Notes under the pieces: generated by a model | Told to the model about the DNA's origin: nothing | Databases searched by the model: none | What the model saw: the letters and a program-made list of their open reading frames with translations, nothing else | Program-made: the position numbers and the translations under genes | Part shown: positions 3,767 through 23,390 of the stretch, piece by piece | How the letters are laid out: the number at the start of each line of letters is the position of its first letter | How positions within the stretch are numbered: position 1 is the stretch's first letter | NCBI GenBank assembly: GCA_050015075.1 | Contig: JBEKCB010000048.1 | Coordinates: 1 to 23,390 of the forward strand | Source of the DNA: Candidatus Brocadiia bacterium | GTDB taxonomy: Bacteria > Planctomycetota > Brocadiia > CAIUPP01 | Direction: 5' to 3' | Length of the DNA: 23,390 nucleotides

Positions 3767-4744
3767 ATGGCTATCTCGCCCGCAAGCCGCCCGCTCTCGA
3801 TGCTGCGCCGGTGCATCCAGGTGCAGCCGGAGACGACGCCCGGAACCGCGATGACGGTGGGGGCGGACCTCTGGACGATTCTCGCTTACGATTCCGTCAT
3901 CAAACCGGTCGTCGAGATGGAGGACGTGGAGAAGCCCGGGGCCGACCAGTACATGCCTTCCGAACTCGGCGCGCGTCTCGGCGAGCACACCTTCAAGCTG
4001 CGGCCGACCGCGCCTTCCGCCAATCCCGCCTGGGCGACGGCGATTCTTCCCGGCTTCGGCCTGGGATGGAACGGCAGCACCGCCTTCGTGCTTGACCAGA
4101 ACTTCCCCGAAACCGCCGCCAGCACCGTCAAGGCGCTGACGCACTTCGTGTGGGAGGACGGCATCCTGAAGTCCATTTACGGGGCTGCCGGCAATCTCCG
4201 CATCTCCGGCAAGGCGGGGAAGACGGCGATCTTCGACTGCACCTTCCGAGGCAAATGGGCGGCCCCGGTCGCCGCCGCGAAACCGACCATCACCTACCCG
4301 ACCGACAGCCCGTTGCGGTTCGTGAACGCCGCGATGACGCTCACGTTTCCCAGCAGCGACATCTACACGCCGAAGGTCTCCAACTTCACCCTGGAAATGA
4401 ACAACGAGCTGTACCCGGAGGAGGACGGCAGCTCCGGCGACGACACGGGAATCAACTACGTCCTCATCCCGAAGCGGCGCGTGAAACTCACCATTGACCC
4501 GCTCACGACGCTCCTGAGCGGCGGCAACGCCCACGACCTCTACGCGCACTGGCTGGAGCAGGAGCTTTGCTCCGTGGCCTTCTCGCTGAAGGACGCCGCA
4601 GGTAATTCGCTCGCCTTCGCCATGACCGGATGCCAGTACGACCTGCCCGCGCCGGGCGACCGCAACCGGCTGATGAAGGAGGACGTGACCCTCCTGAATC
4701 AGAACAACGACCTGACGCTGACCTTCACACCGCATAGCGCGTAA
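3767..4744 (+). CDS. Major tail tube protein
   Basis: RBS AGGAGG, 325 aa, ETTPG near the N-terminus, F.LEMNNEL motif. Precedes tail chaperones and tape measure; no sheath gene present. Confidence 0.75.
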   Translation: MAISPASRPLSMLRRCIQVQPETTPGTAMTVGADLWTILAYDSVIKPVVEMEDVEKPGADQYMPSELGARLGEHTFKLRPTAPSANPAWATAILPGFGLGWNGSTAFVLDQNFPETAASTVKALTHFVWEDGILKSIYGAAGNLRISGKAGKTAIFDCTFRGKWAAPVAAAKPTITYPTDSPLRFVNAAMTLTFPSSDIYTPKVSNFTLEMNNELYPEEDGSSGDDTGINYVLIPKRRVKLTIDPLTTLLSGGNAHDLYAHWLEQELCSVAFSLKDAAGNSLAFAMTGCQYDLPAPGDRNRLMKEDVTLLNQNNDLTLTFTPHSA

Positions 4745-5195: not shown

Positions 5196-5470
5196 AGTGC
5201 CCGGTCTGCGACGGCAGCGGTTGTTCGGAATGCAAAGACGGCGAGTTGATCATCGTCGTCTGTCCTCTCCGCATCGTGCCGCGAATCGTCTTTGAGGTCA
5301 TCGCGGATGCCCGCAGGTACTACAAGCACGGCCTTGCGCCGGTTCATGGGGGCACACGCGACCAGGCTGCGCTATTCCTGGCTGCGGCTGACTTCGTCCA
5401 GAGCGAGGACTCCCGTGACGAGAGCGAAGAATACGAGAAGGCCATGAAGCGGATAAAAGGCGATGGCTGA
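5108..5470 (+). CDS. gpT segment of the G-T frameshift product (about 238 aa fusion), Cys-rich
   Basis: -1 frame reads KLRIAVRWQRGKICGGECRDCKGPPDTTVECPVCDGSGCSECKDGELIIVVCP...GLAPVHGGTRDQ...KGDG*. Its stop overlaps the tape-measure start. Confidence 0.72.
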   Translation, partial: KLRIAVRWQRGKICGGECRDCKGPPDTTVECPVCDGSGCSECKDGELIIVVCPLRIVPRIVFEVIADARRYYKHGLAPVHGGTRDQAALFLAAADFVQSEDSRDESEEYEKAMKRIKGDG

Positions 5471-7958
5471 CAAACAACTGGCGATTGCGCTTGTCGGCAC
5501 GGACGAAGCGTCCGGCGTCGTGGGCCAGTCCGCCCGCAAGATGGCCGCCGACCTTGAAGCCCTCCAGAAGCGCACCTTCGATGTCGGCCACGACGCCCGC
5601 GCCCGCGAAACGCGGGAGATGTCCAACCACTATGACACGCTCGCCGCCCAGTACAAGGCGCAACATGAACGCCTCGTGCAATACGAGGCGTCAGCGCGTG
5701 AAAAACTCGCGGGGCTGCGCCTCGAACGCGCGGGAAAACGGGCAACCCCGGAAATCGCGGCTCAGGATCGGGAGGTTAATCAGGCCCGTGCGCTGATCGC
5801 GCGCAACGAGGACGTGCAGGCCGAGGCCGCCAGGGCGAAGAAGGCCGAACAGGACGAGATGTCGAAACGTTATGAGGTTGCGGCGGCGGAAAAACGCGCC
5901 GCCGACCTCGCCGCCATCGAGCGCCGAATCTTCGACAGCACCCACAGCGCCCGCGAGCGCGAGCTACGCGACGTGCAGGAATGGAAGGCGCGCGAGCTGG
6001 CAGTCTACAAGAACGATGCCGAGATGCGCGCCAAGATCGAGGAAGCCGCCGGGCAGCAGACCTCCGAGATTCAGAAGCGATATTCTGCGGGAACCATTCA
6101 GCGATTCCTCGTCTCTGCCCGCGCGCTCAAAACAGCCCTCCTGGGCGCAGAGGTCTACGTCGCTTACGAAGTGGCGAAGGGGATCGCCGGCGCGATTGAA
6201 GCCGGGCCAGCGGAAACCGCCGCGCGCGCGAGCGGCCAGGCCGCAGAGATGATGAAGGGGCGGCTCGCCAGTCGTGCCGCAATCCAGGGAACCTACACCT
6301 GGATTCCGATTCTCGGCAGCATCGCCAAGGGTGTTCACGACTCCATCGCCGACACGAAACGCGAGACCGCGCTTGCGGAGCAGGGGGAGCGGACGCAATC
6401 CGAAATTCAGGAACTCTCCAGAGGCGTCCAACGAGCCGCACTGACCTCCGAACGATCCCGCGCGAACTTCCTCGGATACACGCCTGCCGAGATGGCCCGG
6501 CTGGACTATGAACAGGGCCGGCAGGAGCGCGCCGGGCGGCTCAGGGAAGCGCAGGAGGTCTACGGCCAGGCCAGCTCTGACTACGGGCGGTCGCGGGAAC
6601 TCCATCTCTCCAAGGATGAGCAGCAGGCATTCCTCGTCAAGGAGCAGCAGGCGAAGCGCTACGTTGACCAGCTTCGCCAGGTCAACGCGGCCGAGGATGA
6701 ATACGCCGGGGCGACCGCCAAACGAGCCGCGCAGATGGAGAAGGCGGGATTCTGGCGCGGGATCGAGCGGGAGACGCTCGGCGCGCAATTCACCGGCGGA
6801 CCCGGCTACGAGCAGCGCCAGGCCATCGAGCGGCGGATGCAGGGGCTGTCTCAGCAAGAGGAACTGGCGGCCCCCAAATTCGCCGGATTGGACGAGCGGA
6901 TCAAACAGGCCGGGGACAAGGAAGCGTGGCTGAAGGACTACCAGGACCGTATGCGCCGGCAGGGGAACCCGGGCTACACCCGGTATGACGCGGAAAAAGC
7001 CTGGAAGCGCGAATTCGGGGACGTGGATGAACTTCAGAAACAGCGCGCCGCCGTCATCGCGCGCCAGGGCGCTCAGACAACCGGGCTGACGACGCAGCAG
7101 CAGTACGAGCGCATGCAGTGGACCGCCGGTCTCGATCTGCGAGGCTTCGAGGCTCGGTTTGGCGGTCCGACGCAGGCAGAAGCGCGTGCACGCGAGCGCG
7201 AGGAGATGCGCGTCCGGCACGAGCAGGAAATGGGCGGTCCCGAAGGCAGCCCTACGCGGCTGAAGGAAGGGACCGACGAATATAAAAAGCTCAAAGCGGT
7301 ACAGAACGCCGAAGTTATAAACCGCGACAAAAAATACGACCGCGAGGACGAGGACCGCGAGCGCCGGCACCAGGTCGTCATGCGCGACGCGCTGGCCGGC
7401 GCGGCGTTCGACCGCGAAGCCATCCGCCGGCGGGAAATGGATCGCATCAAGGAATCCTACGCCGAGGACATCAAGAAGTTCGGCGAGACGGAGGAGATCA
7501 AGGCCGAGATCAAAGCGAAGCAGGACACGCTCGCGGTCCAGCAGGGTGAGCAGCGCAGGGAGGAACGCGCCGGGATCATCGAGCAGGCGCTGCGGACTCC
7601 CGGCGTCGGCGGGCAGTTCTCGGACGAGGCGGATCGCCTCGCGCTCGAGGAGACGGAGCGCAAGCGCCGCCAGGAACACCCTGAAATGTCCGCGCTCTTC
7701 GACAAGCAGGACGCGGCCGAACGCGCTGAAATGGCCGCGCAGCAGAACTGGAAGCCGAGCGAAGTGGCCAGCCGCAAAGGAGCATGGGACGCCGGTCGGC
7801 CATCCGGCTATGACCGCTTCATGCCGGGGCAGACGCCGGAAGCGAAGGCGCTCGGCGAGTACCTCCAGAAGAACTACGGCACGCTCGACGCGATCCACAA
7901 GCTGCTGACGGCCCTCGCCGGCAATCTCGGTGTCGCCCCTTCGGGAGGAGCCGGCTAA
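5463..7958 (+). CDS. Tail tape measure protein
   Basis: 831 aa, Ala/Glu/Arg/Gln-rich helical protein. N-terminus L.IAL.G.DEAS. Directly after the G/GT genes. Confidence 0.8.
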   Translation: MADKQLAIALVGTDEASGVVGQSARKMAADLEALQKRTFDVGHDARARETREMSNHYDTLAAQYKAQHERLVQYEASAREKLAGLRLERAGKRATPEIAAQDREVNQARALIARNEDVQAEAARAKKAEQDEMSKRYEVAAAEKRAADLAAIERRIFDSTHSARERELRDVQEWKARELAVYKNDAEMRAKIEEAAGQQTSEIQKRYSAGTIQRFLVSARALKTALLGAEVYVAYEVAKGIAGAIEAGPAETAARASGQAAEMMKGRLASRAAIQGTYTWIPILGSIAKGVHDSIADTKRETALAEQGERTQSEIQELSRGVQRAALTSERSRANFLGYTPAEMARLDYEQGRQERAGRLREAQEVYGQASSDYGRSRELHLSKDEQQAFLVKEQQAKRYVDQLRQVNAAEDEYAGATAKRAAQMEKAGFWRGIERETLGAQFTGGPGYEQRQAIERRMQGLSQQEELAAPKFAGLDERIKQAGDKEAWLKDYQDRMRRQGNPGYTRYDAEKAWKREFGDVDELQKQRAAVIARQGAQTTGLTTQQQYERMQWTAGLDLRGFEARFGGPTQAEARAREREEMRVRHEQEMGGPEGSPTRLKEGTDEYKKLKAVQNAEVINRDKKYDREDEDRERRHQVVMRDALAGAAFDREAIRRREMDRIKESYAEDIKKFGETEEIKAEIKAKQDTLAVQQGEQRREERAGIIEQALRTPGVGGQFSDEADRLALEETERKRRQEHPEMSALFDKQDAAERAEMAAQQNWKPSEVASRKGAWDAGRPSGYDRFMPGQTPEAKALGEYLQKNYGTLDAIHKLLTALAGNLGVAPSGGAG

Positions 7959-8875
7959 TGGCCGTCGTCAAAGTCACGGAGAGCTGGAAACAACTGGGCA
8001 GCAAGGTCGATGGCATCCCAGGGATCACTCCCATCTATGTGAACGCCACGAAAGTTTTCAGCGTGAAGTTCGACGTGGCCGCCGAGGGGAATTCGCTGGC
8101 CGCATTGACCGCGAACGACGGGACGACGCAGGTCCCTGGAAACGGGGCGTTCTATTCCTCCGGTTACAACTATCTGATCCTGCGGAACGTCCACGTCCTC
8201 GAACCTGTCGGGCCGACGCTGTTCCGCGTCGTCTGCGAGTATTCCGGTCTGGTCAACCCGTTTTCGCAGCAGCCCGTCCTGCGATACGCCGGCATGCGCC
8301 ACGCGGAGGAAGTCGGGCACGACGCGACCGGCAAACCCTATCGCAACACGATCGGGCAGCGTCTCACAGGGCACACGCGCGATTTCTACGACGTCATCTT
8401 CACGCTGACCCGCAACGAGGCGACGGACACCATCGTGGGCGGCGCATGGCGCGGCGTCGTGAACTCGGACACGGTGATGTGCGGCGATTACACGTGGGCC
8501 CCGAAGAAGGTGAAGATCGAGGACATTTCCGCGACGCGGGAGTACACGCCCGTCACGTCAGGAACTCTGACGTTCCAGAGCTGGTTCTATCCGGTCACGT
8601 ACACGCTGGCGGTTCGGACGCACGTCGTCACGATCAACGGCGGCAGCGCGACCGACATCGGCTGGCAGTACCTGGAGGCGAACCACGGCTCGCAGTACTG
8701 CGCCGTGTCCGGCGGCCCGACGAGGGACACCGTGAAGTACGGCCTCGGCCCCGACGTGCTCCTGAAGCAGGACGGCACGCTCGTCATGCCGACGGACCCC
8801 GACTCGTCGCTGTACTGGCTGCTCTTTGACGACTTCTTCCCGACGGCCTTCGCTCCGCTGGGGTTGAGCTTCTAA
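7958..8875 (+). CDS. Putative distal tail / hub protein
   Basis: 305 aa, beta-rich, TAATG-coupled to the tape measure; expected position for a tail-tip protein. Confidence 0.55.
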   Translation: MAVVKVTESWKQLGSKVDGIPGITPIYVNATKVFSVKFDVAAEGNSLAALTANDGTTQVPGNGAFYSSGYNYLILRNVHVLEPVGPTLFRVVCEYSGLVNPFSQQPVLRYAGMRHAEEVGHDATGKPYRNTIGQRLTGHTRDFYDVIFTLTRNEATDTIVGGAWRGVVNSDTVMCGDYTWAPKKVKIEDISATREYTPVTSGTLTFQSWFYPVTYTLAVRTHVVTINGGSATDIGWQYLEANHGSQYCAVSGGPTRDTVKYGLGPDVLLKQDGTLVMPTDPDSSLYWLLFDDFFPTAFAPLGLSF

Positions 8876-9489
8876 TGGAAAAACTCGTCATACCGACCGG
8901 GCGCGACTGGAACGACGTGCTGAAGCGGCTGGGCCGGCTCGACCGCAAGGGCGATCCGCGCCCGCGCCGCGAGCATCCCTGGACCTTCCCGGCGGGCCAG
9001 CCGATCCCGATCACGAACAACTTCTCGACGCTCGCGCCGGCGGGCGGCTTCGCCTGGCTCAACGGCAGCGCCGGTTCCGACGCCGATCATTACGGCGTCA
9101 TCCAGCCGACTTCCCCAGGCATCGCCCAGACGCTGGTCATCGTGGACTCGGACATCCCGCCTGGCGGCAACGGCCTCGGCTGGACGGCGGACGGCTGCGA
9201 GCATCCGTGCTATGACCCGATGGGGATCTTCGTGGTCAATCGGCGCTTCAGCGCGTCGGCGAACAGTTGGGCGCCCATGGCTAACCCGCTCGGGCCGGTC
9301 ACGGCAACCGCCGCGGCCGTCTCCGGCTTGGCAATGGGATTGTTCCATGGTCAGCGCGGGGACACGAAGATGGTTCGGACGGGGCCCGGCGCAACGGCCG
9401 GACTGCCCATCAAGGTCCTCATTCTCAGCGCCAACCACACTGTGACGCAGACGGCGCCAAACCAAGTCACGCTGACTTATGTGAGTTAG
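8875..9489 (+). CDS. Putative tail-tip protein
   Basis: 204 aa, TAATG-coupled, Gly/Pro/Thr-rich. Confidence 0.5.
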   Translation: MEKLVIPTGRDWNDVLKRLGRLDRKGDPRPRREHPWTFPAGQPIPITNNFSTLAPAGGFAWLNGSAGSDADHYGVIQPTSPGIAQTLVIVDSDIPPGGNGLGWTADGCEHPCYDPMGIFVVNRRFSASANSWAPMANPLGPVTATAAAVSGLAMGLFHGQRGDTKMVRTGPGATAGLPIKVLILSANHTVTQTAPNQVTLTYVS

Positions 9490-9492
9490 GTC

Positions 9493-9654
9493 ATGTTCCT
9501 GGTCATTGACTCGCTGGGAAACCTTTACACGGCGGACGAACTGATTCCGGGGACCGGCGAGGTCTTCACGGACATGGACGGCCTTCTGGATGCTTCGGCG
9601 TACACGACGACGGCCGATGGCGACGACACGCTGACCATGGGAGCGCAGACGTGA
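9493..9654 (+). CDS. 53-aa ORF missing from the ORF track; paralog of the segment preceding the Cys repeats of the next gene
   Basis: MFLVIDSLGNLYTADELIPGTGEVFTDMDGLLDASAYTTTADGDDTLTMGAQT*. Fills the gap exactly (3 nt after the previous stop; its TGA overlaps the next GTG). 23/53 ungapped identity to aa 262-314 of the 9651-11861 protein. Confidence 0.8.
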   Translation: MFLVIDSLGNLYTADELIPGTGEVFTDMDGLLDASAYTTTADGDDTLTMGAQT

Positions 9655-11861
9655 AATGGAAACGCTTCCTTTTCCTGTGGGTGATTCTTGTGCTTCTGGA
9701 CCTATTTAACTATTCCGCCGGGACTCTCCTTGCCAGCACAGGCAACTGGAACGTCGGCGCCCAGACCTCCGCGACGCCCGGGGGCTTTAATCCCTCCTTC
9801 GGCTGGCGGAAAACCGCATGCCCGGGCGTGAAGCCGGATGCTTATGGCGGAGTCCCTCTGAACTTCAACATAGCGACCTATGCCCGGAACATCGGGCATG
9901 CGAACCACAGCGTCCAAATCACCTTCGACGTCGGCGATTACACCTTCGTGGATTGGCCCGCCAACGAGAGCAAAGGCTTTCCATGCGGCACGCCGAGCTT
10001 CTTTGAAGTCGGTGTGATCCTGCGGTATGACCCGACCAGCGGAGATTACTACTTCGCAGAGGTCGTCGGAGCTGGCGGATGGTTCCAGTATCCGATCGTC
10101 GGCTGGACGACCGGCGTTGTGGCGATCGGCAAACGCGTCGGAGGCGTCACCACGATCCTGGCGGCGCAGAACATGGGCTTCGGTTCAGGCAAATTGGAAT
10201 GCTCGGTGTGCGGGCAAGAGCTGGTCGCCAGGGTGATGGGCGGCGACCTGACGACGCCTTGGGACTATGCCGAGAACCTGGAACTGGGCTATCCGGTCCT
10301 TGAGGTCAGTGATACGGACATTCCGAGCGGGACTTTCGGCGGCATGCTCGGCGAGGGCGACGGCAACACGGACGTGGGCGGCCCGATGTTTCCTCGGATC
10401 ACCTCCTGGATACAGCAGGCGGACGCCGACAAGACGATCCTGGTCGTGGACGCGAGTGGGAACGTTTACGCGGTGGACCGCATAAATGCCGGCCCGGGCG
10501 AGGTCTTTGTCGAGATGTTCGGCGCGCTCGATTTCGACCAGTACGCCACGGCGAATCAAGGCGACAGCGCGCTTCTCCTGGGGGCTTTCTCCGGCTGCGC
10601 GACCGGCTGCACGGCGGCCTGCACCGCCGGCTGTACGGCCAGTTGCACGGCGACCTGTACGTCCGGCTGCACCGCCAGTTGCACCACCGGCTGCGAGGGC
10701 AATTGCGAGGCGGCGTGCCAGACCGCGTGCGAAACCCAGGCTTGCCAGACGTCCTGCGAGACGCAGAATTGTCAGGCGGGCTGCACCGCGGGCTGCACGT
10801 TCTCCTGTACGGCCGGCTGCACTTCCGCGTGTACGGCCGGCTGCCAGATTCCCTGCGAATCCAGCGGGTGTCAGGGCGGCTGCACGGCGGGTTGCACGGC
10901 GGCGTGCACCGCGGGCTGTACGGCCTCCTGCACCGCCGGCTGCACGAACAGTTGCACGGCGGCCTGTACGAATTCCTGCACGAGCGGCTGCACGGCCACT
11001 TGCGCCGGCGGGTGCGTGAGCGGCTGTACGACGGGCTGCACTGCCGCCTGTACGGCCAGTTGCACGGCCGGTTGTACCTCCGAGTGTACGGATAGCTGCA
11101 CTGCCGAGTGCACGGCGGATTGTACTGCGGCCTGCACGGCAAGCTGCACCACGATCTGCGAGTCCGCCTGCGAAACCGGCTGCGAGACGCACACGTGCCA
11201 GACGGCGTGCGAAACCCAGGCGTGCCAGACGGCCTGCCAGACCCATACCTGCCAGACGGCGTGCGAAACCCAAGCGTGCCAAACGGCTTGCCAGACCCAT
11301 ACCTGCCAGACGGCGTGCGAAACCCAAGCGTGCCAAACGGCTTGCCAGACCCATACCTGCCAGACGGCCTGCGAGACCCAGACATGTCAGACGGCTTGCC
11401 AGACGCACACGTGCCAGACCGCCTGCGAAACTCAGGCGTGCCAGACGGCCTGCCAGACGCACACGTGCCAGACCGCTTGCGAGACCCAACCCTGCCAGAC
11501 GGCCTGCCAGACCCACACTTGCCAGACGGCCTGCGAAACCCAGTCGTGCCAGACGGCCTGCCAGACGCATCCGTGCCAGACGGCGTGCGAGACGGCGACC
11601 CAAATCATCTCGGCGGATTATTATTGCTGCAAATTACAGTTCTGGGGGGCAGCGGGACATCAGCCTGACAACACAACCTGTTCGGGATCGCCTTACGGCA
11701 CGACTTATTCATGTATGCAGGGCAGCAGCGTCATCGGTTTCGGTTCTGGGGCGTGCCACGTCACCGTAGCCGGCCAGAGTTGCAATATGGTCACGATTCT
11801 CGGTCCTGCATGGAGCACGTTGGCAGGTTGCCAGGGCGTGCCCTGCAATTCATCCACATAG
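9651..11861 (+). CDS. Putative tail fibre/structural protein with giant Cys-X3/X4 repeat (radical SAM target candidate)
   Basis: 736 aa: hydrophobic N-terminus, beta-rich globular domain (DLFN...NW), 53-aa leader-like segment, 79 periodic Cys (aa 316-646), Cys-containing C-terminal tip. Occupies the tail-fibre slot of the operon. Confidence 0.7.
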   Translation: MKWKRFLFLWVILVLLDLFNYSAGTLLASTGNWNVGAQTSATPGGFNPSFGWRKTACPGVKPDAYGGVPLNFNIATYARNIGHANHSVQITFDVGDYTFVDWPANESKGFPCGTPSFFEVGVILRYDPTSGDYYFAEVVGAGGWFQYPIVGWTTGVVAIGKRVGGVTTILAAQNMGFGSGKLECSVCGQELVARVMGGDLTTPWDYAENLELGYPVLEVSDTDIPSGTFGGMLGEGDGNTDVGGPMFPRITSWIQQADADKTILVVDASGNVYAVDRINAGPGEVFVEMFGALDFDQYATANQGDSALLLGAFSGCATGCTAACTAGCTASCTATCTSGCTASCTTGCEGNCEAACQTACETQACQTSCETQNCQAGCTAGCTFSCTAGCTSACTAGCQIPCESSGCQGGCTAGCTAACTAGCTASCTAGCTNSCTAACTNSCTSGCTATCAGGCVSGCTTGCTAACTASCTAGCTSECTDSCTAECTADCTAACTASCTTICESACETGCETHTCQTACETQACQTACQTHTCQTACETQACQTACQTHTCQTACETQACQTACQTHTCQTACETQTCQTACQTHTCQTACETQACQTACQTHTCQTACETQPCQTACQTHTCQTACETQSCQTACQTHPCQTACETATQIISADYYCCKLQFWGAAGHQPDNTTCSGSPYGTTYSCMQGSSVIGFGSGACHVTVAGQSCNMVTILGPAWSTLAGCQGVPCNSST
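10596..11594 (+). repeat. Coding tandem repeat: CTAx 4-mers, then 7 x 54-bp units (CQTA-CETQx-CQTA-CQTHT)
   Basis: Counted from the translation: 79 Cys-initiated units. 54-bp units run 11196-11573 with synonymous variation. Confidence 0.95.
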
Positions 11862-11869
11862 AGGGAAAG

Positions 11870-12292
11870 ATGGCTTGCGCGAACATCACGGCTGCGCGAA
11901 CGGCGCCGGACTCGGACCCGCCTTACACGGAGCATCAATGCTCACTCGTGGCGCAGTTCAGCGGCGATTCATTATTTCAGAACGGGTGGATCGCCGATGC
12001 GCCGTCAGCCGGCTGTTCCGGCTTAGATGACGGGGCGTCCATTTGCAGCGACGTCATCAATGCGTTTCTCAGCGTGCGCGTGAGCCTCATGTGGGAAAGG
12101 CCTGATGCGGCGTGCCCAACGTGCCTGAGCCTGCAGCAGGCCTTGGCGCTGATCGTGAGCCGGCAGGGGACGGCGGTCGCAGGACTGGTATTGGACGCGG
12201 CGGTGGGCGCGGGAATGCCGGCGGCGCAGGCGGAGGCGCTGGCGACGGCGAACGGAATCCCGCTGGACACAGATGACGGAGGTGGGACATGA
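11870..12292 (+). CDS. Hypothetical 140-aa protein (possible fibre chaperone or maturation accessory)
   Basis: ATG at 11870 with GAGGGA RBS right after the upstream stop. Acidic, contains CPTC. Its stop overlaps the rSAM start (ATGA). Confidence 0.65.
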   Translation: MACANITAARTAPDSDPPYTEHQCSLVAQFSGDSLFQNGWIADAPSAGCSGLDDGASICSDVINAFLSVRVSLMWERPDAACPTCLSLQQALALIVSRQGTAVAGLVLDAAVGAGMPAAQAEALATANGIPLDTDDGGGT

Positions 12293-13785
12293 GCACTCGA
12301 CGGCAGCGATGGGCGGCAATGGCTACGGGCCGGGCGGCCGTTCCCGTTCGCCGCGATCTGCGGAACTGTGCGCCGTGCCGAGGCAAGCTCCTGGCGACGA
12401 TGAAAGCGGAAATCGCTCAAACGGCTGCCCACACTCTCAAGCCGCTCAACGCGAAGCTGCAAAGCCGCCCCGACTTCATTCCCGCCGCGCCGAGGACCGA
12501 GGTCGTGAAACTGCCCGGGCACACGGTGCTCTACGACGTGCACAGCATGGCGGCCGTCGAGGTGGATGACAAGAGAATTGAACAGCCGGGCTGGGTGCAA
12601 AGCCTCCACGAGCACGGACTCAACTGCGCGGAGAAGCCGCAGTTCCGCTTCTTCCATCAGACGGAGTGCCTGTACCTGATCCTTGAGGCCACGCACGCCT
12701 GCAACCTCGCCTGCCAATACTGCTTCGTTCGGAACTACTACCCGGAACAGGGCGGGATGATGACGATGGACACGGCGCGCAAAGCCATTGATCTGCTCTC
12801 GCCCAAGCAGCCCGTGTCCGTCGGCTTCTTCGGCGGAGAGCCGCTGCTCAATTGGGACCTGATCGCCGGCGTCACGGCCTACGCCAAGGACCTCGCGGCG
12901 AAACGCGGCGTGGCCAGCCGGCTGCACATCACGACGAACGCGACGCTGCTCGACGAAGAGCGGATCCGATTCCTGGACGCGAACGGCTTCTCGCTGATCG
13001 TCAGCCTCGACGGCCCGGAGGAAATGCACAACCGAATGCGGCCGGGCAAGAGCGCCGCGCTGAACAGCCAGCAGGCCACGGTCGCCAATCTGCGGAAGTT
13101 CAAGGGACGCGGCCTGGCGCTCCGCACGACACTGCGCAGCACGTTCACCGGCGCGGGGATCGAGATGCTCCCGCGCATCGAATACCTCAACGCGCTGATT
13201 GAGGACGGCTGCGCGAGTCACATGAGCGTCGAGGCGTGCAGCCTGAACGAAACCGCCTGCCTGCGTCTGCCGGACGGTCACCCTCTGGCGATCACGCCGG
13301 CGCATTACGACGCGCTCGCGCAGGAGTATCACCTGGCTGCCAACTGGTATGTCGCCCAGGTGCGCGCCGGCAAGAGGCCGTCGCTGCAACAGTTCGCCTG
13401 GGCCCTGCGCCGCCTGCTCTACACGCAGCATTCCTGCACCGAGTGCGGCGCGGGTTGCGGATACCTGTCCGTGGACCCCGATGGCCATCTCTTCGCCTGC
13501 CATCGAGAGGGCAAGTCCGTCATCGGCCATCTGGACACCGGCGTGGACGAGGAGCTGCGGGCGAAGTGGAAGGACAACCGCTTCTATGCCCGGCCCGACT
13601 GCATCGTCTGCCCGATCAAGTACCTCTGCGGCGGGGGCTGCCGGATGAATTCCCTCGACCGCCACAACGACATCCGCCGGCCCGACGAGATGGACTGCTT
13701 CCTCAAGAGACGGATGTTCGAGGAAGCGCTCTGGATCATGTGCGAATTGGGGCCGGAGACATTGCGCGCCATTTTCCCAGGATGA
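12289..13785 (+). CDS. Radical SAM/SPASM peptide/protein maturase with N-terminal RRE-like region (SCIFF/ranthipeptide-maturase-like)
   Basis: CNLACQYC SAM motif, FFGGEPLLNW, TTNATLL, VSLDG; SPASM CGAG...V.PDG..F.CH and CIVCPIKYLCGGGC...C. GHTVLYDVHSMAAVEVDD resembles the RRE beta strands of SCIFF maturases such as CteB. Confidence 0.92.
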   Translation: MSTRRQRWAAMATGRAAVPVRRDLRNCAPCRGKLLATMKAEIAQTAAHTLKPLNAKLQSRPDFIPAAPRTEVVKLPGHTVLYDVHSMAAVEVDDKRIEQPGWVQSLHEHGLNCAEKPQFRFFHQTECLYLILEATHACNLACQYCFVRNYYPEQGGMMTMDTARKAIDLLSPKQPVSVGFFGGEPLLNWDLIAGVTAYAKDLAAKRGVASRLHITTNATLLDEERIRFLDANGFSLIVSLDGPEEMHNRMRPGKSAALNSQQATVANLRKFKGRGLALRTTLRSTFTGAGIEMLPRIEYLNALIEDGCASHMSVEACSLNETACLRLPDGHPLAITPAHYDALAQEYHLAANWYVAQVRAGKRPSLQQFAWALRRLLYTQHSCTECGAGCGYLSVDPDGHLFACHREGKSVIGHLDTGVDEELRAKWKDNRFYARPDCIVCPIKYLCGGGCRMNSLDRHNDIRRPDEMDCFLKRRMFEEALWIMCELGPETLRAIFPG

Positions 13786-13798
13786 AAAGGAACGCCAC

Positions 13799-14746
13799 AT
13801 GAATGTCCGCATCTTGCGAGAGGCTGGCGGGATCGGCGACATCCTCTGCACGCTGCCGGTCGCCCGCGCCGTCAAGGAGAAATGGCCCGGCGCGAAGCTG
13901 TATTACTTCGGCCTTCGGGATTACCGGGAGGTCCAGGAGCACTGTCCCGACGTGGACGTCCTCGTCCCCGTCGAGAGCCAGGGCCGCCGCGAGCGCGACA
14001 CCGACCCGGACCCGAAGCTTCACCCGTACCTGGCCGCTCCGGGCCTGCCGGAATTCGACATGACAATTGACCTCTGGTGCCCGGCTGCGCGCGAGGAACG
14101 AGCGAAGGCCCCGAACCTCGAGCACGGCCGGATCGAATCTTTCTGCATCGCCGCCGGTCTTACGCCGTCGGACTACGTGCCGCGTTACTTCGTGAGATAC
14201 GGTGAACAGGTCTGGGCGAAGGAATGGCTCGGCGCGGACGTGAAGCGGCCTGTCGTCGGCCTGGCGCCCTTCTGCACGAACAACATCCGGCGCGACTGGC
14301 CTCTGCCGCGATGGATTGAGTTGGCGACTGCACTGGAAGCTCGTGGGGCGACGGTCCTCGTCTTTCATACCTGGTTCAGCGCCGTGGCGGAAGTGCCGGG
14401 GCGGAAGGTCATCGGGGTTCCGATCTGGCAGCTGGGCGCGCTGACCGCCGAATGCGATGCCGTCGTCACGCCGGACTCCGGCCTCTTCCATTTCTCGGCC
14501 GCCGTCCACGCGCCGGCCATCGGTCTATTCGGCTCGACCCATGCCGACCAGACCGCCAAACACTATCCGCTGCACAGGACGATCTGGCCAAAGGGTGCCT
14601 CGCGTGACCACCAGTGTAGACCGCCGTGCCTGATGTTCGAGTGGCTCGGCTGCGACAACCAGTGTCGAACCCAGGGCTGTGAAATCCTCCAGAAGATCAC
14701 GGTCGAGGATGTTCTGAATGCAGTGAGAGAAAGGACACCACCGTGA
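13799..14746 (+). CDS. Glycosyltransferase family 9 (heptosyltransferase-like, GT-B) with C-terminal Cys cluster
   Basis: GGIGD..C.LP..RA.K.KWP, R.WP...W, VVTPDSG.FH.SAAV..P.IGLFG.T and CRPPC...C...C...C...ITVEDV motifs. Confidence 0.88.
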   Translation: MNVRILREAGGIGDILCTLPVARAVKEKWPGAKLYYFGLRDYREVQEHCPDVDVLVPVESQGRRERDTDPDPKLHPYLAAPGLPEFDMTIDLWCPAAREERAKAPNLEHGRIESFCIAAGLTPSDYVPRYFVRYGEQVWAKEWLGADVKRPVVGLAPFCTNNIRRDWPLPRWIELATALEARGATVLVFHTWFSAVAEVPGRKVIGVPIWQLGALTAECDAVVTPDSGLFHFSAAVHAPAIGLFGSTHADQTAKHYPLHRTIWPKGASRDHQCRPPCLMFEWLGCDNQCRTQGCEILQKITVEDVLNAVRERTPP

Positions 14747-15015
14747 GTAGAGGAAGCGAGGCGCGGGCGGCCTTGAAGGCCGAGTGCGAGGCGGCCATCG
14801 AGGACATCAAGCGCAACGGCCATCTGTCGAATTGCAAGGCGCATGACGCCCTTGCGCGCGGACAGATCGTGCTCCTGAGGTGCGAGATCGCCCGGCTGGA
14901 ATCCGACGGCAGGTCCGAAAGCCGGCACAGCCTGACTCGCATGTGGTCGGCGATCATCGCGCTGATTGTGACGGTTCTGGTCTCGTGGATTCAGTGGCAT
15001 TTTTGGGGCAAATGA
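14743..15015 (+). CDS. Small protein with C-terminal TM helix (holin-like or membrane protein)
   Basis: GTGA overlap, RBS AAAGGA, C-terminal MWSAIIALIVTVLVSWIQW. Confidence 0.55.
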   Translation: MSRGSEARAALKAECEAAIEDIKRNGHLSNCKAHDALARGQIVLLRCEIARLESDGRSESRHSLTRMWSAIIALIVTVLVSWIQWHFWGK

Positions 15016-15038
15016 TTTGCCCCGGAAGGGAGGGACGT

Positions 15039-15492
15039 ATGCGACGACTGTTTGCGTGCGTGGTGCTGGGCGTGGCGTTGGGCATGGTCGTAGGCTGCGC
15101 GGGCGCGCCGGTGCAGAAACCGACGCAGACCATCGCGCCGGACACGGCGACCGCCGCGAAGCTGGACAAGGTTTCGGCGGACGTGCTGGCTCTGACGCAG
15201 CAGAACCAGCAGGTGATCAACGCGGTGCAGAAGTCCGCCCAGGACGCCGACCTGTTCCGGACGCAGATCGGAGGTCAGGTGTCCAGCCTGAGCCAGTTTC
15301 AACAGCGGGTTGAGTCCTGGCTGGCAGAAGATGTTGGCGGTCATTGGCTGCTGGGCGTTCGCGTTCCTGCTTATCATCCTGGTGGGCAAGCTGGACCTGA
15401 ACTGGTGGATGGACGTGATCGTAACACTGTGCGTCCCGTTTCTGGTGCTCGGAGCGCCGTGGACGGTGCTCCATCAAAAGGCGCTGTTTTGA
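15039..15492 (+). CDS. Lipoprotein with coiled coil and C-terminal TM segments, split by a +1 frameshift near 15297 (spanin-like)
   Basis: MRRLFACVVLGVALGMVVG-C lipobox. The +1 frame opens at 15292 and encodes FNSGLSPGWQKMLAVIGCWAFAFLLIILVG...(two hydrophobic segments)...KALF*, stopping just before the next RBS. Confidence 0.5.
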
Positions 15493-15512
15493 AGAAGGGA
15501 GGTTTGACGCTC

Positions 15513-15713
15513 ATGGAGAAGCTGGAGTGGTTCGTCATCGGTGGGATCGTGTTCTCGCTTGGCCTGTCGGTGCTGTTCGGGTTCTGCCAGGCGGTCGGCG
15601 ATGCCATCGAGACGAAGGAGCACAACGTCATCGTGCTCATCGTCAACTGGGTCAAGGCGGCCTGGCAGCGGCTCTTCGGGAAGAAGACGGCCGCTCCCAC
15701 GAGCGGAAGCTAA
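15513..15713 (+). CDS. 66-aa membrane protein (holin-like)
   Basis: Own GGAGG RBS (15498-15502). MEKLEWFVIGGIVFSLGLSVLFGF TM segment, amphipathic second helix, basic tail. Confidence 0.6.
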   Translation: MEKLEWFVIGGIVFSLGLSVLFGFCQAVGDAIETKEHNVIVLIVNWVKAAWQRLFGKKTAAPTSGS

Positions 15714-15806: not shown

Positions 15807-16260
15807 AGGGGCGCGACGGTCTTCGTCTTTCACACGTGGTTTAGCGCTGTTGCAGACGTGCCGGGCCGCAAGGTCATCGGGGTTCCGATCTGGCAACTCA
15901 GCGCGCTGGTCGCCGAAAGCGACCTGATTGTGACGCCCGATTTCGGCCTATTCCATCTATCGGCAGCTGTCCACGTGCCGGCCATCGGCCTTTTCGGCTC
16001 GACTCACGCCGAGCACATTTTCAAGCACTACGCGCTTGCACAAGACCATCTGGCCGAAGGACGCGCCTCGCGCCTACAAGTGCAAGCCGCCATGCATGAT
16101 GTTCGAGTGGCTCGGATGCGACAACCAGTGTCGAACCCAGGGCTGCGAGATTCTCCAGAAGATCACGGTCGAGGAAGTTCTGAACGCAGTGCAGGGACAA
16201 CGGGACATGCAATCTATGCACCAACGCGGGACCTGGTCACCCCACGGTAGTGATAGATGA
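15807..16260 (+). pseudogene. 5'-truncated, frameshifted second copy of the GT9 C-terminal half
   Basis: RGATVFVFHTWFSAVADVPGRKVIGVPIWQL...CDNQCRTQGCEILQKITVE matches about 14342-14725. One extra base near 16035. DSG changed to DFG. Confidence 0.88.
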
Positions 16261-17674
16261 ACGAAGCGCACGCTACTCCCGTCCTGCCGCCCTTGGCTCG
16301 AAGCCTCTGCTGGAATTCCTCCTCATTCCCCACCATCGGGTACTTCGGATCGTAAACGTTCTCAGCGGTGTGCGCGTTCGCCCACCAGGTCGAGACGCGC
16401 GCCGCCTGAAAGAAGCCGTCGACAATCGCGGGCGCGACATGATCCGTGGCGTACCGCCTGCGCAATTCATGGGCGACCTTCTCAAGATATCCTGCGTCGT
16501 CGGCATTCCGGAACTGCCGGTAGTGCATGGCGACGTCCTGCATAGAGAAGTTCGGCGGCCCGGGCGCGTTGGTCAGCGGGCCAATGAGGTCCCAGCCGGC
16601 ATTCAGCGCGCGCTGGACGCCATCGAACCAGCCGGACGTGAACAGAATGTCACTATTGGCGGCCACGGCATACTCGGCGCCGAACTCCCGCGCCTTGCGA
16701 AGTCCCCAGTTCCATGAACGCGTCAGACCGCCGCGATCGGCGAAGTGGTGAACGAAAATTCGTCCTTGCATTCCTTTGTCAATCCATCGCTCCCAATCGT
16801 CGGGGTTCCACCCCGGACTCGCATCGTCAACTAGAATCGCTGTTCCGTCCTTGGTACGCTCCAGGAACGTCGAAATCGCTTTCCTCGCATAATCGAACGC
16901 GCCGTACGTTGGGATTATTGCCGCTACGCGGATGGAGTCACTCTCCGTAGGCCGCGCACTAACTGAACCGTTGCCGGCGCCTGAGTCATAGATCGGCCAA
17001 CCCGGACAGGTCAGCTCGCCTATGTGCTTGAAGACGAGCATGTCTGGGGACTTGATCGCCAGATACTTTCCGGCCAAGCGCTGCGAGTAGCTCACCTCCG
17101 CCCACTTCCGGCGCAATGGATTGTCTTCGGAAAGGGGACCGACGTCTTGGAATGCTTCCGTGCGACAGAGAGACGGCGTGAACGTGAACGATCCCCATGG
17201 CACGCTCGGGTTGAGGACGAAGAAGTTGACCTTCCCTCCTGACGCGATAAAGGGACCGTCGCAGCGCAGCTTGTCCGCAAAGTCTAGTGGAGGCGCCGCG
17301 TCCAGACGCACTTGCGCCAATCGAGGGTCTGTCTGCAAGATGATGGCCGACTCGCGAAGGAACTGGGTACCCGCAGCATTGCCGAGTTCCCAGTCGTCAG
17401 GAAGAAGAAGGAAGTAGTCGCTTCTCACGAGCGACAGGAGACGGTTCAGCCCGGGACCGACGCCCACATTGTGCTTCGAGAGAACAAGCACGTCCCAGTT
17501 CAGGCCCTTGATCTCCTCTCGGTCTTTGCCTGACGATGCGTTATCGAGGCAGAACCACGAAACACTTGCATCGCGTTCGTACCTCTCGATATGCGCGCGA
17601 AGGGACGTGACGGCGCGCTCCAGGTAGGCTGGCCTCCGGCAACTGAGCGCGACGACTGAAAGGTTCAGTCTCAT
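16214..17674 (-). CDS. Tandem two-domain GT-A (GT2-like) glycosyltransferase
   Basis: Domain 1: LSVV..SC.R..YL, DNAS, N.G...GLN, PDDW. Domain 2: AAIIPTY, LVDDAS, G.TRSWN.G, NSDI, GPLTN, FIYHY.G.T. Confidence 0.85.
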   Translation of the reverse strand: MRLNLSVVALSCRRPAYLERAVTSLRAHIERYERDASVSWFCLDNASSGKDREEIKGLNWDVLVLSKHNVGVGPGLNRLLSLVRSDYFLLLPDDWELGNAAGTQFLRESAIILQTDPRLAQVRLDAAPPLDFADKLRCDGPFIASGGKVNFFVLNPSVPWGSFTFTPSLCRTEAFQDVGPLSEDNPLRRKWAEVSYSQRLAGKYLAIKSPDMLVFKHIGELTCPGWPIYDSGAGNGSVSARPTESDSIRVAAIIPTYGAFDYARKAISTFLERTKDGTAILVDDASPGWNPDDWERWIDKGMQGRIFVHHFADRGGLTRSWNWGLRKAREFGAEYAVAANSDILFTSGWFDGVQRALNAGWDLIGPLTNAPGPPNFSMQDVAMHYRQFRNADDAGYLEKVAHELRRRYATDHVAPAIVDGFFQAARVSTWWANAHTAENVYDPKYPMVGNEEEFQQRLRAKGGRTGVACASFIYHYRGVTRSRVGA

Positions 17675-17831: not shown

Positions 17832-18500
17832 TCAGTTGGTTGGAAAGCTCAGAGCGACCTTCAGCCGTTTCCAGCACGATCGGAAATTCCCGACGATATG
17901 CGCCACAGTCTCTGGATTGCTGCCGGTCTTGTAGAGGCGATATCCAAGCGACACGATCATCCGGCCGTTCCGGTTGCTCTTTGCGCTGCCGAAGATGCCG
18001 TGCCGTTGGCAGAGACGTTGAAGCTGCGCCGACAGAGCCTCCATATCCTCACATCGGGCGCTGATTTTCAGGACGAAATCAATGATAGGGCGCTCAGTGC
18101 GCTCAGATCCCTCACAGTGAAGAGTGACATCCGCCGGTTCGCCGATAGTCCACCCTAAGCCGAAGCTCAACGCCCAGTCCTGGCCGTTCCTGAACTCCTT
18201 CTCGGCTACTACCACACCCCCGAAACCGCGAAGCGTCTCAACGACCATCTCCTTCGTCTCGTGGCGCACTTCCTTCGCCCGAGCCTCCTCTCCGGCATCG
18301 TAGTGGAAATAGGAAATGCAGTGACCCGCGCCGAGATGTTCTCGCATGCGTCGGATGATTTGCAGGTGCAATTCGCGCGGGCCGCCTTGACCGCGTTCCC
18401 AGCGTTCCAGAGTAGGCTCGGAGATGAAAAGCTTCGGCGCAAATACGCGTCGGCTCAGGCCAAGGCTTTCACGAATTGCACGCAGTTCATTCGGAGACAT
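17832..18500 (-). CDS. XRE-family HTH protein with C-terminal alpha/beta domain
   Basis: MSPNELRAIRESLGLSRRVFA..L.IS..TLERWERG; RBS AGGTGAG. Confidence 0.8.
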   Translation of the reverse strand: MSPNELRAIRESLGLSRRVFAPKLFISEPTLERWERGQGGPRELHLQIIRRMREHLGAGHCISYFHYDAGEEARAKEVRHETKEMVVETLRGFGGVVVAEKEFRNGQDWALSFGLGWTIGEPADVTLHCEGSERTERPIIDFVLKISARCEDMEALSAQLQRLCQRHGIFGSAKSNRNGRMIVSLGYRLYKTGSNPETVAHIVGNFRSCWKRLKVALSFPTN

Positions 18501-23000: not shown

Positions 23001-23390
23001 TCAGTCCAGCGCGGCGAGACGCTCTTGATCTGGTTGTACGAGGAATCGTACGCGAAGTACGCGGCGTTGTTCTGCGCATCCACCGTGGACATCAGGAAGC
23101 CGCTCGTCGCGTCGTAGTTGTAATACGCCGTGTCCCCCCGTGGGTCCTGCACCTTCCGGCCGTGCCCGGAGGAATCGTAGCCGGTCTGCGTGCTGTTGCC
23201 GAGCGCGTCGGTGATGCAGGTCTGGTTCCGGTTCGCGTCGTACTGATAGTACGTGACCACGGAAAAAGATCCGGGCACGTTCCGCGGCTCGATCGTCTTC
23301 CGCACGTCCAGGCCGTTCGAGCCGTAAACGTACTGCGTCGTCGCTCCGTCAGCAGCCGTCTGCTCCTGCGTCAGCGAATTGAGCGAATTG
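20036..23390 (-). CDS. Rhs/YD-repeat polymorphic toxin, 5'-partial
   Basis: About 21-aa YD repeats (D.LGN.TY..YD..N). Rhs core R.Y....GRF.Q.DP...Y.YA..NPL.YTDPEG, then a 153-aa lower-GC CT. Frame is open to the window edge. Confidence 0.93.
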   Translation of the reverse strand, partial: NSLNSLTQEQTAADGATTQYVYGSNGLDVRKTIEPRNVPGSFSVVTYYQYDANRNQTCITDALGNSTQTGYDSSGHGRKVQDPRGDTAYYNYDATSGFLMSTVDAQNNAAYFAYDSSYNQIKSVSPRWTETGSYAGFTAYFGYDQLNRRTKSVDALTNATYYDYTSRGDLLASVDPRNVTTYYEYNGLRLMTLQSVSDASGNPVTASQSRYDPYKNRTASVDGMGNPTYYFYDVVDRFRAQRDALLNHTYFRYDAVGNRTMSCDARLNASYFEYDGLNRVKRQFDPLGNRTYFKYDLAGNSTAIQDALNNATYYAYDQLNRRRCVADALGGRTYFRYDPAGNRTAATDPLNQASYFKYDALNRQVAVADPLGNTAYFGYDAAGNRRKVTTPLQETSYFAYDALNRLTGTTDPLNESASFGYDSVGNRVKVCDALSNTTYYRYDALNRQTAARDALGDSEYFAYDAASNLLKHRDALANSTYYRYDVLNRRTKVSYPDTTYAYFRYDAVSNLTGAKDAWGWTYFSYDALNRITQEMRLLGNSVSHSYDAVGNRLKLSIGDGEPAQYFRYDALGRMTAAASTAVGSGGYGNQAWGITFYGGAGSIPGSGTAYYAYDAASRRTKTLLGNGAAAYFSYDAANRLLSQKSILPGGTALTYFNYGYDAASRIVKIGREGGKTIYYSYDGADRLTGENWYNAGMQNVYAFAWSYDAVGNRRWQNRLGQQSYFTYDAANALRKSFPVGGSATYYSYDLNGNCTKIAAPASQTTYFAYNSVNLMARVTFRNGVSNYFYYDALNRRRALVDSNGPAYFMYDQDGLCQLVERSITGTVRAEYTRGSAPVPGIGDMVAAKINTATTTYYQYPVYDQPGNVHRIVNAAGAISGSFEYNAWGEKLLNQPPPEGTRFSFSAPAWVTLNDDPDERLFITRARTYYSGIGRFMQKDPEDGLAGGYIYALANPLSYTDPEGTFTLIELAVGVVVVAVAVIVIGYGVETSKEIAEEAFAKASAKSIVQWTVATELITNPQAACAGSIRTQLYLVGSNPTESAHFDKTKVVPTTIYYYRASKGQSIGYRFSLNGKSISGQIPDTSLSNCDCKRENNVTQDMNNPETRKQYRAWVNGH

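Follow-up and report, generated by a model that had tools for sequence, protein, structure and literature searches.

This work concerns a phage tail module on contig JBEKCB010000048.1 of a Candidatus Brocadiia bacterium (GenBank assembly GCA_050015075.1), in which a 736-amino-acid (aa) protein with a long and regular cysteine repeat is followed by a radical SAM (rSAM)/SPASM enzyme and a glycosyltransferase of family GT9. The window, meaning the whole stretch of 23,390 nucleotides (nt) that was analysed, is the complete 23.4-kb contig of a binned assembly of 66 contigs and 4.64 Mb. We consider it probable that this locus carries out an enzymatic thioether stapling, probably together with glycosylation, of a tail-fibre shaft. 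The thioether proposal is based on the kinship of the enzyme, on a synteny that holds in both search directions, on the near-invariant Thr, Gln or Glu that follows the cysteines of the repeat, and on the identity of the repeat unit with the core of the SCIFF peptide. From sequence and gene order we infer that the repeat protein would be the substrate, that thioether formation in one of two registers would be the chemistry, and that the protein would be glycosylated and incorporated into the virion. The features of the locus are as follows.

9493-9654, + strand: 53-aa protein, paralogue of the pre-repeat segment of the next gene product (46% identity over 50 aa)
9651-11861, + strand: Cys-repeat protein, 736 aa (ORF, open reading frame)
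9651-10433, + strand: its N-terminal domain, an orphan (exhaustive HMMER search), predicted all-beta
10434-10595, + strand: its pre-repeat module, residues 262-315, resembling the 53-aa protein (sequence comparison)
10596-11588, + strand: its Cys-repeat array, units C-[T/Q/E]-x-x(-x), 79 Cys in 331 aa
11589-11861, + strand: its C-terminal non-repeat domain, about 90 aa with 8 Cys
11870-12292, + strand: small ORF, 140 aa from the probable start ATG 11870, function not assigned
12289-13785, + strand: radical SAM/SPASM enzyme, 498 aa, CteB/PapB/QhpD group (sequence and fold)
13799-14746, + strand: GT9-family glycosyltransferase (PF01075)

The 736-aa protein contains 91 cysteines, 79 of which lie within residues 316-646 at a spacing of 4 (60 times) or 5 (18 times) residues, and the resulting array of 331 aa is composed of 24.8% Thr, 23.9% Cys and 16.6% Ala. 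The residue following Cys was Thr (33), Gln (27) or Glu (15) in 75 of the 78 units, with CQTA (16), CTAG (8) and CQTHT (6) as the commonest units, followed by CTAA, CTAS and CETQA (5 each). The run is not a product of chance, since no other stop-to-stop ORF in the entire 4.64-Mb assembly has a run of more than 11 such cysteines. The ORFs, the cysteine spacing and the tight gene packing over 5463-15015 (overlaps of 1-4 nt or gaps of 3-13 nt) confirmed what an earlier, sequence-only reading had reported, i.e., a 736-aa protein with 79 cysteines spaced at 4-5 residues within a tightly coupled late operon. At the DNA level the array shows tandem periods of 12, 27 and 54 nt, short-read contigs from other samples break or mis-join inside it, and a near-identical (97%) public protein has exactly one 9-aa unit fewer; for these reasons the copy number is treated as uncertain, and its exact value may depend on the assembly. 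Short-read contigs of four runs contain identical pieces of the locus, some of which reach from the 3' end of the Cys gene across the small ORF into the 5' part of the rSAM gene.

The rSAM protein, for which ATG 12400 is a likely start because homologues begin near residue 48, matched the Pfam Radical_SAM model PF04055 with 62 bits (cut-off 29.5). The cysteines of its CX3CX2C motif (C138, C142 and C145) and seven SPASM cysteines (C386, C404, C438, C441, C447, C451 and C470) were invariant in 18 and again in 75 homologues; the SPASM motif includes CX2CX5CX3C, and the assignment follows from the 7-Cys C-terminal motif together with the fold, no match of the Pfam SPASM model being reported on the protein. 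Among curated families the top NCBIfam model was the SCIFF maturase TIGR03974 with 186 bits (1.3e-54, cut-off 425), and the nif11 maturase model (185 bits), QhpD TIGR03906 (166 bits, cut-off 453), PapB NF047865 (164 bits, cut-off 340) and the ScfB-related model (163 bits) likewise stayed below their cut-offs; the five best curated models are thioether-forming or close kin. All 75 family members that were scanned match the same models as the window enzyme. The best sequence match in the PDB was 5wgg/5why at 7.6e-43, which is CteB, the SCIFF thioether synthase, according to the fold-search title and as described in PMC8326336. The AlphaFold2 (AF2) model of the rSAM (predicted local distance difference test, pLDDT, 92.8) superimposed on 5wgg with a template-modelling (TM) score of 0.77 over 465 columns. 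Model, PDB and fold comparisons therefore agree with the earlier proposal that the enzyme groups with CteB, PapB and QhpD and not with sulfatase maturases. The narrower label of a SCIFF-type maturase does not hold, given 186 bits against a cut-off of 425 and a separate clade in the tree described below, and the CXXX-repeat maturase, which the same reading had offered as an option, falls away with 56 bits against 350 for TIGR04115.

It is unlikely, in our judgement, that the rSAM modifies the repeat protein by a different chemistry, such as formylglycine formation, sactionine, carbon-carbon links or epimerisation. Such a chemistry would fit the fact that no equivalog cut-off is passed by the rSAM, SPASM enzymes of similar fold are varied (a sulfatase maturase, SuiB and the epimerase EpeE are all in the fold list), and the second PapB/QhpD-like rSAM that is found in relatives of the locus may point to more than one modification. 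Set against this are the thioether-forming or closely kindred nature of the five best models, the far better match of CteB than of the sulfatase maturase (7.6e-43 versus 3e-12 in sequence, TM 0.77 versus about 0.62 in fold; the anaerobic sulfatase maturase model TIGR03942 gave 80 bits against a cut-off of 349), and the conserved Thr, Gln or Glu beside each Cys, which would be hard to explain if Cys alone were modified.

Returning to thioether formation, the closest known system is CteB with its SCIFF peptide. It provides the best sequence and fold match, it has in common with the window enzyme both the CX3CX2C motif and the 7-Cys SPASM motif, and the array unit C-Q-T-S/A at a spacing of 4 equals the SCIFF core found near cellular homologues. 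It differs in that the window rSAM lies in another clade and reaches 186 of the 425 bits, in that the N-terminal domain of the window rSAM is shorter than that of most maturases, in that a SCIFF peptide has about 45 aa and six Cys versus 736 to about 1,200 aa and 79-198 units in the phage proteins, and in that the phage system has a GT9 partner and a viral tail-module context. As described in PMC8326336, CteB joins Cys32 of CteA to a Thr gamma-carbon, of Thr37 or of Thr34 depending on the report; in a protein subunit, QhpD joins Cys to Asp and to Glu; freyrasin carries six Cys-Asp links of the type C-X3-D; and in NxxcA Cys23 is linked to Asn20, the acceptor lying three residues ahead of Cys. 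The acceptors given there for CteA, freyrasin, QhpC and NxxcA are thus Thr, Asp, Glu and Asn. The QhpD/QhpC pair resembles the proposed system in that rSAM thioethers are placed on a protein that stays in a complex and is not released as a peptide (PMC8326336), and in its Glu acceptor, which may have a counterpart in the E-type units of the array; unlike the array with its tens to hundreds of units, QhpC has three links in a small subunit, and no dehydrogenase genes were recognised in the window. PapB/freyrasin and NxxcB/NxxcA share with the array repeated Cys-acceptor links at a fixed short spacing (PMC8326336), and the NxxC spacing is that of the [T/Q/E]-x-x-C register of the array, whereas their substrates are short peptides with Asp or Asn acceptors instead of Thr, Gln and Glu. 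The enzymes of TIGR04115 and NF038107 are also rSAM/SPASM proteins named for regularly spaced Cys targets; the window rSAM is not a member of either family, its matches being weak and limited to the N-terminal half (56 bits for the CXXX-repeat model, as above, and 74 bits versus 600 for the Cys-every-fifth model CefB). The known targets of CXXX-repeat and CefB enzymes are small peptides.

In IMG/VR, 271 of 470 candidate stretches encode an rSAM relative, and the best 80 of the 271 were kept. The first 35 of these best 80, which form the clade of the window rSAM and whose enzymes are 30-66% identical to it (blastp), were counted for an upstream ORF on the same strand with at least 6 consecutive Cys at a spacing of 3-6. 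The results showed that such an ORF is present in 23 of the 35 viral loci, or in 20 of 31 after the near-duplicates L012, L018, L024 and L027 were dropped, and runs of 5 Cys occur in 4 further loci of the 35. Three of the remaining eight have less than 1.2 kb of upstream flank, and several run-less loci have irregularly spaced Cys-rich stretches, or short C-E units followed by collagen-like repeats. A GT9 gene lies directly downstream of the rSAM gene in 22 of the 35, and 2 of the 13 loci without it have no downstream flank. The arrangement of rSAM, GT9 and Cys-repeat tail protein recurs in many viral contigs; the sequence-only reading had suggested a search for tape measure, Cys repeat and rSAM together. 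The carrier proteins are unrelated to the 736-aa protein of the window; a Baseplate_J protein is immediately followed by one of them, a Tail_P2_I baseplate protein (4e-11; phrog_48, 'tail protein'), and others are proteins of about 1,000 aa two genes after a PhageMin_Tail tape measure. The usual unit is C-E-x-x or C-Q-x-x, with Glu, Gln or Thr as the post-Cys residue. In the close relatives on metagenome contigs (L171-L174), with rSAMs 84-87% identical to that of the window (tblastn), the Cys runs are 149-198 long, with 188-198 consecutive Cys in the repeat proteins of about 1,200 aa, and these relatives share the 53-aa gene, the GT9 and two downstream ORFs. GenBank phage records held no close rSAM relative: the 90 matching records were all below 60% identity, and the rSAM identity was at most 29% in the best 30 of the 90.

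The reverse direction was examined by an enzyme-blind scan of IMG/VR for six C-[E/Q] codon pairs two codons apart, from which 80 loci were analysed and only those kept in which an ORF of 150 aa or more contained 10 or more Cys in a run. The filter removed 68 of the 80, mostly perfect 12-nt repeats in short ORFs, some of which are in giant-virus records. Seven of the 12 loci that passed have a family rSAM on the same record (L210, L214, L230, L253, L257, L263 and L278); in three others (L218, L248 and L272) the repeat gene runs off the contig end downstream, and the last two (L236 and L277) are near-perfect-repeat ORFs of about 158 aa with no family rSAM in the flank available. Among the 80 loci, no diversified Cys-repeat protein with a usable downstream flank lacks an rSAM; related phages that carry the repeat and lack the enzyme, which the earlier reading had named as evidence against itself, were not seen wherever the flank allowed a judgement.

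These counts bear on the possibility that the Cys repeats are left unmodified, binding metal or forming disulfides, and that the rSAM and the GT9 act on a peptide, on the host envelope or on another phage protein. Prophage GT9 and GT2 genes are able to change the glycans on the host surface, the opposite strand has a GT2 gene close by, and 8 of the 35 viral loci are without an upstream run of at least 5 Cys, all of which would suit that explanation. We nevertheless regard it as quite unlikely, as the co-occurrence of rSAM and Cys repeat holds in both directions and across unrelated carriers and tail architectures, a second viral rSAM clade stands beside large Cys-repeat proteins with fn3 or Ig-like domains (12 of 13 rows), and no SCIFF-like small peptide ORF of about 45 aa is evident in the window, where no other ORF of at least 40 aa has a run of at least 6 Cys, shorter runs lying outside that scan.

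The best cellular matches from contigs of one genome per species are 26-32% identical to the window rSAM (blastp), mostly from Clostridia and Veillonella, and near them are small ORFs with 5-6 spaced Cys. The commonest core among these, GCGECQTSCQSACKTSCTVGNQ (26 of 79 small ORFs), is that of the SCIFF peptide, as the sequence-only reading had quoted it, and it consists of three to four units like those of the array (CQTS-CQSA-CKTS-C). A quick, unrooted FastTree phylogeny of 104 rows, built with one in four of the SCIFF-type genome loci and without rows that duplicate the window, placed the SCIFF maturases in a clade of 29 rows with support 100, 27 of them beside small Cys peptides. A clade of 65 rows (support 92) holds all 37 rows that stand beside large Cys-repeat proteins, and comprises among others the clade of the window and a second clade. 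The clade of the window (41 rows, support 97; 23 of 41 beside a large repeat protein) lies outside the SCIFF clade, so that the window rSAM belongs to a mostly viral clade which is separate from the cellular SCIFF maturases. In the second clade (13 rows, support 100) 12 rows are beside a large repeat protein; here the repeat proteins lie downstream of the enzyme, some of them with fn3 or Ig-like domains, and no GT9 was found by BLAST in these loci. In the separate-clade loci L050-L073, with rSAMs about 25-33% identical to that of the window (blastp), the enzyme is directly followed by proteins of 243-723 aa with an N-terminal run of 10-54 Cys.

The proposed mechanism would proceed as follows. 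The 736-aa protein would be a tail-associated, fibre-like protein in which the SCIFF-type unit C-[T/Q/E]-x-x has been amplified in tandem over 331 central residues, and the CteB-like rSAM encoded two genes downstream would act on this array in the host cytoplasm. The enzyme would take a hydrogen from a side-chain carbon of the Thr, Gln or Glu after a Cys and join that carbon to the sulfur of a neighbouring Cys, and repetition of this step along the array would give a ladder of small thioether rings. Two registers may be considered: in [T/Q/E]-x-x-C, as in the NxxC peptide, the rings would tile head to tail, and in C-x4-[T/Q/E], as first reported for CteA, they would overlap. The GT9 would probably add sugar to the same repeat protein. 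What results would be a covalently stapled shaft or linker, free of thiols, that connects the tail-proximal with the distal parts and has a length set by the repeat number, which ranges from 5 to about 198 Cys across relatives. A complex prediction that paired the rSAM (residues 45-498) with the repeat-protein segment 259-348, run without controls, returned no verdict (score 0.00) and speaks neither for nor against binding.

The GT9 of the window matched PF01075 (Glyco_transf_9) with 60.7 bits against a cut-off of 22, while the lipopolysaccharide heptosyltransferase I and II models TIGR02193 and TIGR02195 stayed, with 50.6 and 50 bits, below their cut-offs of 185 and 135. It is 83-85% identical in L171-L173 and L177. 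In one family member, P0096 (775 aa), rSAM and GT9 are fused, and in most loci the two genes are adjacent; the GT9 probably glycosylates the repeat protein as well. Hyperglycosylation of a repetitive structural protein by a heptosyltransferase-like enzyme has a precedent in the TibC/AAH autotransporter heptosyltransferases, which are protein-modifying relatives of the lipopolysaccharide heptosyltransferases (PMC4358343); in contrast, the phage GT9 had no sequence match to TibC in the PDB search (E <= 0.1), and its protein substrate is a putative one.

The case for a virion protein was examined from the N-terminal domain and from the gene neighbourhood. The 736-aa protein has no Pfam or PHROG match, and a k-mer homologue search with residues 30-320 found only the protein itself. 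An exhaustive HMMER search with the N-terminal domain returned only the protein itself, a fragment and one distant, uncharacterised relative of 256 aa (35% identity, E 4e-5), and comparison with the ESM Atlas gave unnamed clusters and two weak leads (PelX_N and DUF6645) only. An AF2 model of the N-terminal 317 residues from a 5-row alignment had a pLDDT of 35.9, too low for use. Since the 256-aa relative begins at the equivalent of residue 14, we propose that the true start may be GTG 9690, in which case the hydrophobic first 13 residues would be untranslated. A signal peptide on the 736-aa protein was considered and rejected, the hydrophobic stretch being probably upstream of the true start. 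The C-terminal non-repeat domain is absent in L171-L173, where the proteins stop right after the repeats, and the L002 and L015 proteins have a different Cys-rich C-terminal domain. An array that lies between tail-proximal and distal or C-terminal parts, and that varies in length, fits a shaft or spacer. In the Tail_P2_I-like proteins of L032 (3603-4757) and L033 (117-1577), collagen-like G-X-Y repeats come immediately after three or four C-E/C-x units, which suggests that Cys units and collagen repeats are interchangeable shaft modules.

The plus strand from position 1 to about 16,950 is a phage late operon, which encodes a capsid/protease fusion (phrog_4523 at 4e-82; PF25209) and, by family matches, a cement or decoration protein and a tail-completion Z-like protein. 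The gene order is tail tube, two small ORFs, the genes for the 831-aa, 305-aa, 204-aa and 53-aa proteins, and the Cys-repeat gene. The tail features ahead of the 53-aa gene are these.

3767-4744, + strand: tail tube protein (PF18906)
5463-7958, + strand: putative tape-measure protein, 831 aa, assigned by position only (after the tube and the two small ORFs)
7958-8875, + strand: 305-aa tail-module protein of no known family, assigned by position
8875-9489, + strand: 204-aa tail-module protein of no known family, assigned by position

No Pfam or PHROG match was found for the 831-aa protein, and no Pfam, PHROG or meaningful PDB sequence match for the 305-aa and 204-aa proteins. The genes for the latter two are kept just upstream of the Cys-repeat gene in L173 (97% identity over 127 aa and 73% over 202 aa, respectively). 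The tail-fibre slot that the sequence-only reading had assigned is supported by this gene position and by the repeats on the tail proteins of relatives, and lacks support from the window protein itself, which shows no tail-family homology. Cargo genes are often found where a tail module ends, and a product that is modified and yet not part of the virion, i.e., a cargo (moron) protein, a secreted or surface protein, or a multi-core precursor of small thioether peptides, might also explain the orphan N-terminal domain without a tail-family match and the hydrophobic stretch with which the longest ORF starts. This explanation appears very unlikely to us. In relatives a genuine Tail_P2_I protein, and also large proteins encoded directly after the tape measure, carry the repeats as a fusion; translation probably begins only behind the hydrophobic stretch; the operon showed no recognisable protease or exporter gene; and the array units run on continuously, without spacers or cleavage motifs.

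Several points weigh against thioether stapling of a tail-fibre shaft and have been taken into account in our estimate of it. No curated family cut-off is passed by the rSAM, and its chemistry would be an extrapolation from relatives of about 25-30% identity. The N-terminal domain matches no tail family, which means that the virion role is based on gene position and relatives. Eight of the 35 viral loci are without the upstream run, as given above, and the tree is a FastTree phylogeny only, whose deep split has a support of 92. The second rSAM of the relatives is missing from the window, and a single enzyme may not suffice or the pathway may differ. Finally, prophage integration and the host assignment are plausible and not proven, because the window is the entire contig of a binned assembly.

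This second rSAM/SPASM protein, of about 375 aa with a CX3CX2C motif, is found in L001 and L171-L173 in the position of the small ORF, between the Cys-repeat gene and the main rSAM gene (for example L171:4741-5871 and L001:3482-4603), and is without an N-terminal domain. Its best models, all below their cut-offs, were PapB with 54 bits (L001) and 50 bits (L171) and QhpD with 47 and 50 bits. A remnant of it was searched for in the window and none was found. The small ORF at 11870-12292 has no family match and no counterpart in the loci of the relatives, and its codon-position GC is weakly coding-like; by comparison of the loci, this ORF, which the earlier reading had listed between the repeat and rSAM genes, is not a conserved part of the system.

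The 53-aa protein just upstream of the Cys-repeat gene matches the 736-aa protein over residues 263-312, a segment that immediately precedes the first Cys, at E 2e-12, and the codon-position GC of its ORF is coding-like. L171-L173 have homologues of 47-51% identity at the corresponding place, accompanied by a GGAGG ribosome-binding site, and L, D, G, G, F, G and GD of the pre-repeat module are invariant across 8 sequences. Possible roles of the protein are those of a leader-like element, of an assembly factor and of a structural module; as a separate paralogue of the pre-repeat module, it might serve in the manner of a leader or in assembly. We rejected the idea that a programmed frameshift links the 53-aa ORF with the large one, as the two genes of the relatives are separate and non-overlapping.

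If thioether stapling were to apply across the mostly viral CteB-like clade, that clade would turn tail and baseplate arrays of C-[E/Q/T]-x-x into thioether ladders and would represent a new class of virion post-translational modification, a wider proposal which we put forward tentatively and rate a little short of an even chance. Such arrays of 5 to about 200 Cys would usually be paired with a GT9, and the stapled, probably glycosylated rod would be the first 'ranthi-protein'. The chemistry class is known, while the substrate class, the scale and the biological setting are new: rSAM thioether chemistry has been known from short secreted peptides and one small enzyme subunit, and here it would be a new structural modification in viruses, with tens to hundreds of links on large virion proteins. 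For comparison, viruses have autocatalytic capsid crosslinks and virion glycosylation. Such a role would explain SPASM radical SAM genes of unclear role in many phages, it would provide genetically encoded rigid rods of programmable length that resist proteases and redox changes, and expansion or contraction of the repeat would tune fibre length. For an enzyme clade that is numerous in metagenomes and still awaits characterisation, the locus also offers a concrete, testable candidate substrate. In the literature outside subscription journals and supplements, neither an rSAM acting on phage tail proteins nor Cys-repeat tail proteins were found to be described.

Further observations concern the rSAM family. 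Of 8,000 candidates that a word-based protein search scored, 1,013 proteins reached E <= 0.001; none of the 120 proteins among the matches listed bears a functional name. In the N-terminal region, ahead of the rSAM core, which the sequence-only reading had taken for a RiPP recognition element (RRE), the model of the window enzyme has a short beta-rich domain with four short strands and very short helices only, compared with the three strands and three helices of the leader-binding winged helix of an RRE, and an insertion of P0089 in this region is missing in most family members. Precomputed Pfam domains of the intein/Hint type are present in P0070, P0090, P0092 and P0109, and the rSAM ORFs of L021, L026, L028 and L035 are unusually long (809-1,487 aa).

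The remaining features of the window lie downstream of the GT9 gene.

14743-15015 and 14880-15713 (277 aa), + strand: downstream ORFs, function not assigned, 88-98% identical in L172, L173 and L177
15858-16250, + strand: C-terminal fragment of a GT9, 130 aa (Pfam GT9 at 2.2e-9)
16214-17674, minus strand: GT2 gene, right side of the contig
17832-18500: helix-turn-helix (HTH) regulator, right side of the contig
20036-23305, minus strand: Rhs-repeat protein, 1,089 aa, right end of the contig (PF05593, 5e-55)

The GT9 fragment, which is 58-83% identical to the corresponding part of the GT9 of relatives, may have arisen by partial duplication or may belong to a second glycosyltransferase that has been split, and the arrangement of the 277-aa ORF followed by a GT9 fragment is retained in L172 and L173. 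The Rhs-repeat protein may be host flank or phage cargo. A promoter and terminator scan gave a number of sites no higher than in shuffled sequence, and none of the sequencing runs listed is recorded as RNA. Outside the window, a second rSAM, 34% identical and of the same clade, is encoded in the assembly on contig C25 (973-9100, minus strand), about 3.4 kb downstream of a tail-like protein of 992 aa, with GT2-like genes between the two. In the 992-aa protein a Thr/Pro-rich linker comes after a five-Cys C-x-x(-x)-C stretch, and the assembly thus seems to hold two Cys-repeat/rSAM systems.

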